Assembly: GCF_050920415.1 (NCBI RefSeq)
Contig: NZ_CP169309.1
Origin: Escherichia coli
Lineage (GTDB): Bacteria > Pseudomonadota > Gammaproteobacteria > Enterobacterales > Enterobacteriaceae
Reading direction: 5' to 3' (one strand)
DNA length: 64,000 nucleotides
Below are positions 27,199-28,546 of the stretch, piece by piece. A program made the position numbers and the translations under genes. Below the pieces are notes generated by a model that did no database searches, was not told the DNA's origin, and saw only the letters and a list, made by a program, of their open reading frames with translations. How positions within the stretch are numbered: position 1 is the stretch's first letter; every line of letters begins with the position of its first letter.

Positions 27199-27933
27199 GT
27201 GAGTCATTACCATGAGCAGTTCCTGAAACAAAATCCGTTAGCCGTCCTGGGCGTGTTACGCGATTTGAACAAAGCCGCAATTCCTTTGCGTATCAGCTGG
27301 AATGGCGGGCAGCTGATCAGCAAAATACTGGTAATAACCCCGGATAAACTGGTGCTGGATTTCGGCAGCCAGGCCGAAGATAACAACGCCGTGCTAAAGG
27401 CGCAGCACATTACCATTACCGCCGAAACTCAGGGTGCGAAAGTCGAGTTTACTGTTGAACAACTACAGCAGAGTGAATACTTGCAGCTTCCGGCATTTAT
27501 TACCGTACCACCTCCCACCTTGTGGTTTGTACAACGACGCCGATATTTCCGCATCTCCGCCCCACTCCATCCGCCTTATTTTTGCCAGACCAAACTGGCG
27601 GATAACAGTACATTACGTTTCCGCCTGTATGATTTGTCGTTAGGCGGCATGGGCGCATTACTGGAAACGGCAAAGCCTGCCGGATTGCACGAAGGCATGC
27701 GCTTCGCTCAGATTGAAGTCAACATGGGGCAATGGGGTGTTTTTCACTTTGACGCCCAGTTAATCTCAATCAGCGAGCGCAAAGTGATTGATGGCAAGAA
27801 TGAAACCATCACCACTCCCCGTCTGAGCTTCCGTTTTCTTAACGTCAGCCCGACGGTGGAGCGGCAATTACAGCGGATTATTTTCTCTCTCGAGCGGGAA
27901 GCCCGGGAGAAAGCGGCCAAAGTGCGCGACTGA
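27199..27933 (+). CDS. ycgR: Flagellar brake protein YcgR (c-di-GMP-binding PilZ domain)
   Basis: 244-aa ORF, GTG start; RxxxR ... DxSxxG PilZ signature present (RRRYFRI ... DLSLGGMG). Confidence 0.9.
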   Translation: MSHYHEQFLKQNPLAVLGVLRDLNKAAIPLRISWNGGQLISKILVITPDKLVLDFGSQAEDNNAVLKAQHITITAETQGAKVEFTVEQLQQSEYLQLPAFITVPPPTLWFVQRRRYFRISAPLHPPYFCQTKLADNSTLRFRLYDLSLGGMGALLETAKPAGLHEGMRFAQIEVNMGQWGVFHFDAQLISISERKVIDGKNETITTPRLSFRFLNVSPTVERQLQRIIFSLEREAREKAAKVRD

Positions 27934-27934
27934 T

Positions 27935-28546
27935 TTACATCGCGTCCAGTGCCTGCTCAAGTTTGTAGATATAGCGCGGTGCCTGCGGCGCAGGATGATT
28001 TCGTGCTACATGGTCGAGGAACTCGTCAGCATCCAGATCGTTGATTTTGCTGATCGCCTTTTTCCGATCTGACGAGAAAGTCCGTAACAACGCACCTGCC
28101 CCGTTAGCGTATGACACCACCAGCGCATATTGCAGTACCTTCGGATCTTCAATGCCTGCTAGCGGGCCGGTTTCCAGGATATTCAGGTAAGCCGCCCCCA
28201 TTGAAATATTACGTTCTGGATTCTTCAGCTCGCTGGTCGTCGGCTCACCACTCCAGCCCATACGGCGATAGACATCACGTCCGGAGGTTGAAGCTTTCAA
28301 CTGCATCAAACCAATGGCATTCGATTTACTCACCGCGTTCGGATTACCACCCGATTCGATAGCGATAATCGCCGTAATTAATTGTGGATCGACGCCCCAG
28401 GCTGCACCGGCTTTCTGGCTTATTGGCATCCACTGCATCGCACGTTGCACCGGAACTTTCGCGTTCCACGGCGGGTTCGTGTAGTCATGCTTTGATGAAC
28501 AACCCGCTAATAACACAATCAAAAAGGCAAACCATCTTAATTTCAC
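27935..28546 (-). CDS. emtA: Endo-type membrane-bound lytic murein transglycosylase (EmtA/MltE)
   Basis: ORF 27935..28660; start trimmed to the GTG at 28546 ([16 protein letters not shown] lipobox), giving 203 aa. Confidence 0.88.

Follow-up and report, generated by a model that had tools for sequence, protein, structure and literature searches.

Compact convergent junction of ycgR and emtA in Escherichia coli, with a conserved emtA 3′-end hairpin encoded inside ycgR

Convergent excludons, as catalogued by the Lasa group with ExcludonFinder (NAR 2025, PMC12288877), are adjacent convergent genes with overlapping transcripts whose defining feature is mutually exclusive expression, and in most of the E. 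coli cases described there the 3′-end signal of a gene sits inside its neighbor's transcription unit. The subject of this work is the tail-to-tail junction of ycgR and emtA in a 64,000-nucleotide stretch of the Escherichia coli contig NZ_CP169309.1 (hereafter the window, with positions counted from its first base), and this very pair is listed among the 165 convergent excludons that were seen in 50% or more of 58 MG1655 RNA-seq samples. The gene ycgR (27199–27933, plus strand) encodes the flagellar brake with its PilZN and PilZ domains, and emtA (also called mltE; 27935–28546, minus strand) encodes a lipoprotein lytic transglycosylase. The pair is grouped with convergent excludons by layout and overlap alone: like them, it consists of adjacent genes in tail-to-tail orientation whose transcripts overlap according to published data, but unlike them the overlap covers the coding sequence of ycgR and not only untranslated regions (UTRs), and only emtA has a defined 3′-end element. 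We consider it likely that this locus is a compact tail-to-tail boundary in which the 3′-end signal of one gene is housed inside the coding sequence of the other. The emtA mRNA reaches into antisense ycgR by about 130 nt, its end lying right after a conserved hairpin that is under selection at the codon level. Some transcription goes beyond the hairpin and is halted by Rho about 130 nt farther downstream; ycgR itself is expressed from a FliA promoter, and nothing comparable to this hairpin follows the ycgR stop codon.

The junction reads aagtgcgcgaCTGAtTTAcatcgcgtccag at positions 27920–27949, with the TGA stop of ycgR at 27931–27933, the TAA stop of emtA as the complement of 27935–27937, and one T (27934) as the sole intergenic base. 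A preliminary description of this DNA had pointed out this single-base separation, on which the sequence, the list of open reading frames (ORFs), the RefSeq annotation, and the MG1655 annotation all agree. Gene coordinates are those of the RefSeq annotation of the 100% identical E. coli MFDS1022581 (NZ_CP169399.1), where the positions are the same, and the homologs of ycgR match Pfam PF07317/PF07238. The same arrangement is annotated in K-12 MG1655 (emtA at 1243180–1243791 and ycgR at 1243793–1244527), meaning that the 1-nt junction is already part of the reference annotation, and among 5426 complete E. coli genomes, 5422 carry the region.

The overlap of the ycgR and emtA transcripts is likewise already published, as is the emtA 3′ end, which stands in a table of the TRS study (Nat Commun 2023, PMC10687069). 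There, the terminus is placed at K-12 positions 1243914–1243929 on the plus strand with dominant ends at 1243919 and 1243922, is classified as “Distant primary” (Supplementary Data 2 and 3) with adjusted p values of 2.5e-11, 3.5e-8, and 3.5e-18 in three libraries (Supplementary Data 3), and is listed for emtA (1243180–1243791) at 1243922 with a 3′ UTR of 132 nt (Supplementary Data 4). Mapped to the window, the 3′-terminus cluster occupies 27797–27812 (minus strand) in GAUGGUUUCAUUCUU, the tail just 3′ of a hairpin at 27812–27865 that is identical to the “fold sequence” given for this terminus in the TRS data. The cluster starts at the last base of the stem (1243914), and its dominant ends at 1243919 and 1243922 lie 5 to 8 nt past the stem. 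This places the terminus about 125 to 135 nt past the emtA stop and within ycgR, giving a 3′ UTR of about 131 nt (27804–27934, minus strand) that is antisense throughout to ycgR codons ~202–244 plus the stop codon. Further inside ycgR, a Rho termination region antisense to the gene was reported at K-12 1244050(+) by Adams et al. (eLife 2021, PMC7815308, Supplementary file 2), where the reads upstream and downstream numbered 91/20 in untreated cells and 136/111 with bicyclomycin (Rho score 3.71, p 5.5e-7). This corresponds to approximately position 27676 on the emtA strand of the window, about 260 nt inside ycgR and about 130 nt past the hairpin, and the increased read-through with bicyclomycin in these published data is the hallmark of a Rho-dependent terminator. 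The C/G ratio of the minus strand is 1.18–1.28 at 27784–27607 and 0.71–0.73 across the hairpin. Overlapping 3′ UTRs, which the preliminary description had deduced from the spacing of the genes, are thus borne out by the excludon listing, by an emtA terminus 125 to 135 nt inside ycgR, and by a Rho region further in. The accompanying statement that there is no room for a terminator holds for the 1-nt space, which is indeed too small, but is misleading for the locus, given that emtA has a conserved 3′-end hairpin inside ycgR.

This hairpin closes the emtA mRNA with 22 base pairs (counted in a fold of 81 nt) and is encoded antisense in ycgR codons 205–223 (…TTPRLSFRFLNVSPTVER…). Its 62-nt stretch folds at -38.1 kcal/mol on the minus strand (z -8.0) and at -25.7 kcal/mol on the plus strand (z -4.8), and no other 60-nt window of the 64 kb, whichever the strand, is as stable; windows average -11.7 kcal/mol (sd 4.65), and only five loci reach -30 kcal/mol or below. 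None of 2000 synonymous recodings of an 84-nt stretch was as stable as the native sequence (-42.4 kcal/mol; recodings with mean -19.4, sd 3.3, and best -34.4). Among 13 hairpin-bearing sequences, the hairpin has a synonymous codon diversity of 0.16 at positions where the amino acid is invariant, as compared to 0.42 both gene-wide and in the stretch from the hairpin to the stop codon, and 10,000 permutations never gave a value that low. In an alignment of 18 sequences, 87% of cells can pair, versus 36–51% when the partners are slid, and the hairpin contains one well-supported compensatory pair (C-G in 12, U-A in 5, and U-G in 1) besides invariant G-U pairs.

Canonical intrinsic terminators offer one comparison for this element, which shares with them the stable G+C-rich stem-loop and, by the published terminus, an RNA 3′ end located a few nt beyond the stem. 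Unlike them, the E. coli hairpin is followed by a tail whose longest U run is 3 (or 4 if non-consecutive) and which fails the consensus scan, so that the element carries two of the three features of an intrinsic terminator and lacks the U-tract. In relatives, the U runs after the hairpin are longer (UUUUU or UUUUUU in Citrobacter, Salmonella, and others), and partial intrinsic termination is therefore still conceivable. The other comparison is with Rho-terminated transcripts that are trimmed back to a protective stem-loop, as described by Dar and Sorek 2018 (PMC6061677) and discussed in PMC7815308. Like these, emtA combines a bicyclomycin-sensitive region about 130 nt past a stable hairpin with a steady-state end at that hairpin and a poor U-tract; unlike in these, the stem-loop is situated inside a coding sequence of the opposite strand and is unusually long at 22 pairs, and trimming at emtA is inferred. 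The hairpin would form or protect the emtA 3′ end, acting either as a weak intrinsic terminator or as a stop point for 3′–5′ exonucleases after Rho termination downstream, and the poor U-tract of E. coli together with the Rho region 130 nt downstream favors the second option of Rho termination followed by exonucleolytic trimming. The hairpin may also limit emtA-driven transcription through ycgR, the ycgR promoter, and ymgE.

Additional taxa were gathered via protein matches and their contigs, and the hairpin occurs in 14 of the 19 sequences that we compared, including every Escherichia, Citrobacter, and Salmonella sequence, Enterobacter sp. BIGb0383, and two further relatives. In these bearers it surpasses every other 60-nt window of antisense ycgR in stability by 5 to 14 kcal/mol. 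The five taxa without the hairpin conserve the YcgR peptide just as well, showing that the protein sequence does not force the structure. Each of these five taxa has another strong hairpin on the emtA-sense strand: in Lelliottia and E. chengduensis a substitute hairpin lies in the 35–36-nt spacer and is followed by UUCUUUCAC or CGCUUUAC, in Kosakonia and Pluralibacter a 12-pair hairpin is found at about +18 to +60 within the ycgR codons for LQRIIFSLER, and Pseudescherichia has palindromes resembling repetitive extragenic palindromic (REP) elements instead. To judge by their sequences, these other genera have evidently substituted different hairpins.

These comparisons also bear on the idea that the hairpin acts in ycgR mRNA or DNA, for instance by slowing ribosomes, affecting YcgR folding, protecting the mRNA, or binding a protein, in which case its position at the emtA end would be incidental. 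The plus-strand form is indeed unusually stable too (z -4.1 to -4.8) and beats all 2000 synonymous recodings, and the element sits in the most conserved part of YcgR. But the minus-strand form is 11–14 kcal/mol more stable because its invariant G-U pairs become C-A mismatches on the plus strand, the mapped emtA terminus lies immediately 3′ of the hairpin, and the taxa that lack it carry their substitutes on the emtA-sense side, some of them in the spacer and hence outside ycgR. We therefore regard a function on the ycgR side as very unlikely.

Bidirectional terminators and REP elements (Ju et al. 2019; REP preprint 10.64898/2026.03.23.713779) also resemble this locus in that a palindromic element accompanies the 3′ ends of two convergent genes, and the Pseudescherichia spacer with its REP-like palindromes adds to the likeness. 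Unlike these elements, the E. coli hairpin is neither intergenic nor a REP sequence, and instead of lying downstream of both stops it is located inside ycgR. That the hairpin is a bidirectional terminator working by head-on collision (Ju et al. 2019; Wang et al.) and ends both transcripts at one site would suit a convergent pair and a hairpin that can form on both strands, and the model requires neither a U-tract nor Rho. We nevertheless find it hardly credible: the hairpin lies 66–119 nt upstream of the ycgR stop, so that termination there would leave non-stop ycgR mRNAs, the emtA strand shows a Rho-dependent signal, and no ycgR terminus at the hairpin is found among the listed TRS entries. 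Since the hairpin precedes the ycgR stop codon, it cannot serve as a terminator of ycgR.

The situation is asymmetric, with a 3′-end element for emtA and no equivalent for ycgR. At its 5′ side, ycgR has a sigma-28 (FliA) promoter, TTAAGTTTTGTTAACTGTGACCGATAAA (27137–27164, plus strand), which was read directly from the sequence and has two mismatches to TAAAG-N14-GCCGATAA. An identical FliA ChIP-seq motif was reported upstream of ycgR, with an expression of 104 in the wild type and 0 in a fliA mutant (Fitzgerald 2014, PMC4183435). Past the ycgR stop, no plus-strand hairpin stands out above the antisense-emtA background in the 17 taxa scanned. A hairpin with CGCCUUUUUCC at about 28026–28070 was considered as a ycgR terminator and rejected, being weak and uncalled in the consensus scan. 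The plus strand past ycgR is C-rich relative to G at about 28034–28330, with a C/G ratio of 1.2–1.7. When an mRNA ends close to its stop codon or right at it, the ribosomes on it are rescued by transfer-messenger RNA (tmRNA). For normal translation termination, ycgR transcripts must consequently pass position 27933, and they would then enter antisense emtA untranslated and probably end diffusely by Rho. When made in one cell, both mRNAs would be complementary over at least about 130 nt, and any cross-talk would be asymmetric given that the overlap comprises coding region of ycgR but only the 3′ UTR of emtA.

All 17 full-length loci that we examined share the gene order ymgE-ycgR-emtA-ldcA-cvrA, while the distance between the stop codons of ycgR and emtA varies. 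It amounts to 1 nt in seven of seven Escherichia sequences and one further relative, 0 nt in Citrobacter amalonaticus, Enterobacter sp. BIGb0383, and Kosakonia sp. H02, -4 nt (that is, an overlap) in Pluralibacter lignolyticus, 11 nt in C. youngae, C. werkmanii, and Salmonella, 12 nt in another relative, 35 nt in Enterobacter chengduensis, 36 nt in Lelliottia, and 182 nt in Pseudescherichia. This variation from -4 to 182 nt across genera indicates that the exact 1-nt spacing is not itself under selection, and the spacer base, which is T or G within Escherichia, is seemingly unconstrained. The long spacer of Pseudescherichia (positions 2733–2914 of locus L017), which contrasts with the 1 nt of E. 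coli, contains the G+C-rich REP-like palindromes mentioned above, showing that the junction tolerates insertion. As far as this comparison of loci reaches, the compact ycgR-emtA junction is old and tolerated.

It is also possible, though unlikely, that the overlap exists as a regulatory excludon for mutual repression, either via head-on collision of RNA polymerases or via ribonuclease III (RNase III) acting on the ~130-bp duplex of emtA 3′ UTR and ycgR or both, which would couple a gene of the cell-wall/biofilm phase to an effector of cyclic di-GMP (c-di-GMP) in the motility phase. The presence of the pair in the convergent list of ExcludonFinder speaks for this idea, as do the lower single-cell co-expression and higher synteny of such pairs as a class (PMC12288877) and the invariable adjacency of the genes at the 17 loci. 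Further points in its favor come from Salmonella, where emtA is up 2-fold and ycgR down to 0.08 in egg white and where MltE/MltC influence csgD expression upstream of c-di-GMP signaling. However, the egg-white shifts are explained by global envelope-stress and flagellar regulons, validation with p19 as a probe of double-stranded RNA is not feasible for convergent excludons (PMC12288877), the spacing drifts between genera and tolerates even a REP-like insertion, detectable extra selection acts on the hairpin alone and not on the remaining overlap, and emtA reads are low at about 0.13 read starts per nt in the coding sequence (TRS data). Our literature search for links between emtA and ycgR expression, for antisense or 3′ UTR functions of ycgR, or for emtA in RIL-seq data found nothing specific to this locus.

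A bolder variant of this idea, which we regard as improbable, is that the hairpin and the ~130-nt overlap form a selected asymmetric antisense switch that lowers the c-di-GMP flagellar brake independently of FliA. The long and structured emtA 3′ UTR, transcribed during envelope remodeling or the sessile phase, would pair with the 3′ coding end of ycgR mRNA, and the outcome would be RNase III cleavage and non-stop ycgR messages in addition to polymerase collisions. If true, such a switch would turn the gene of a peptidoglycan hydrolase into a cis-encoded regulator of motility control that is conserved in Escherichia, Salmonella, and Citrobacter. Real physiological cross-regulation is unproven and on balance doubtful because the extra constraint is found only on the hairpin, the spacing drifts, emtA expression is low, and the egg-white data, the sole opposite expression shifts that we came across, reflect global responses. 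In our judgment, any cross-talk would be no more than a modest side effect and not the reason for the arrangement.

Several points weigh against the compact-boundary reading that we prefer. The part played by the hairpin in termination or stability is predicted from its folding, its conservation, and the published 3′ end, and a U-rich tract (at least 5 U in 8 nt, starting 0–2 nt after the stem) was not found in E. coli, where the consensus scan was negative as well. Covariation in the hairpin is thin with a single pair, and the sequences are related, so that the shuffle control yields no probability. High conservation of the YcgR C-terminus (73% invariant residues vs 44%) could add to the conservation at the nucleotide level; this segment, which overlaps the emtA 3′ UTR, is the most conserved part of the protein. 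The presence or absence of the hairpin largely tracks one phylogenetic split, and since the five taxa without it fall into one broad clade, its “replacement” may represent only few independent events. Finally, neither a ycgR 3′ end nor a ycgR-strand Rho region appears among the listed TRS, TERMITe, and Adams entries. Specifically, emtA and ycgR are both absent from the TERMITe supplements, and the lists of Adams et al. (PMC7815308) contain no curated Term-seq end of emtA or ycgR, nor any Rho region for the ycgR strand.

At or near the junction, no terminator-like site was called by the consensus promoter/terminator scan of 26600–29700, which had five terminator-like matches elsewhere in this region against a chance expectation of 3.5 ± 2.3. 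A short inverted repeat (GCGCGA / TCGCGT, 27924–27945, unstranded) brackets the two stop codons, which lie in its 10-nt loop between arms of 5–6 bp at 27924–27929 and 27940–27945, and E. albertii has a compensating change in it. It folds at -8.2 kcal/mol on the plus and -9.4 kcal/mol on the minus strand (z -1.4 and -1.7), values equaled by 17–20 of 200 shuffles, and was rejected as an element or terminator because its folding is no better than that of shuffled sequence. Upstream of emtA, the scan matched a sigma-70-like promoter (CTGACA-16-TATCAT, 28606–28633, minus strand), but such matches occur at chance rate in this region and do not count as evidence of function. Rfam 15 has no family for the emtA hairpin, and the only match in 26600–29700 was Chlorobi-1 elsewhere in ycgR (17.6 bits with a gathering threshold of 50, E 0.19).

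Among the 12 annotated convergent pairs of the window, to which this comparison is confined, the gaps measure 1, 44, 49, 51, 54, 99, 143, 167, 175, 206, and 371 nt, while the twelfth pair, the cvrA pseudogene and a hypothetical ORF, overlaps. The junction of ycgR and emtA is the tightest between two well-established genes in the window; a preprint puts the number of convergent pairs in E. coli at 704. Of the other four loci with 60-nt folds at -30 kcal/mol or below, 4853–4912 (+), 16385–16444 (-), 22473–22540 (+), and 31997–32056 (-), three lie in the coding sequences of dauA, dhaL, and an ABC ATP-binding gene, and the remaining one is in sequence without annotation, about 575 nt past the small hypothetical ORF at the cvrA end. 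This ORF (31263–31421, minus strand) overlaps the end of cvrA, which in K-12 carries ymgM and an IS1414 remnant. The gene cvrA is annotated as a pseudogene without its C-terminus (29655–31325), yet an intact-looking ORF of 578 aa reaches 31391. Between ldcA and cvrA, a FliA-type motif TAAGTAAAACGCTGTCTCTGCCGCTAA (29580–29606, plus strand) overlaps a terminator-like hairpin at 29595–29616 and is identical to a weak FliA ChIP-seq site assigned to cvrA (PMC4183435). The pair ymgM-cvrA is also a listed excludon (PMC12288877), and a very strong Rho region with a score of 43 has been reported antisense to cvrA (PMC7815308).

Across Escherichia species, EmtA is 98.5–99.5% identical and YcgR at the same loci only 87–97%, indicating that these abutting genes evolve at very different rates. 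On the other side of ycgR, a TonB-dependent receptor adjoins ymgE in Salmonella, E. chengduensis, Pseudescherichia, and locus L019, and in the window the region between treA and ymgE (20268–26694) comprises an iron ABC transporter, an S-adenosylmethionine (SAM) methyltransferase, modD, and a TonB-dependent receptor, whereas ycgY is all that K-12 has there. The matches further included a YcgR fragment with 95% identity to the query on a 381-bp contig (L011, NZ_FXUZ01000104.1) of a “Staphylococcus cornubiensis” assembly and a YcgR-like protein (P0098) filed under the fungus Astraeus odoratus, both of which look like enterobacterial contamination of the respective assemblies.

The ycgR-emtA locus is an ordinary and largely known compact junction that matters little by itself. 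Its modest addition is a clean example of a 3′-end hairpin encoded within the coding sequence of a convergent neighbor, where the YcgR protein and an RNA structure of the opposite strand both constrain the same DNA and where the constraint is visible as suppressed synonymous change. It also offers a small and convenient test case for whether catalogued convergent excludons do regulate and for whether such an end arises by intrinsic termination or by Rho termination plus trimming.

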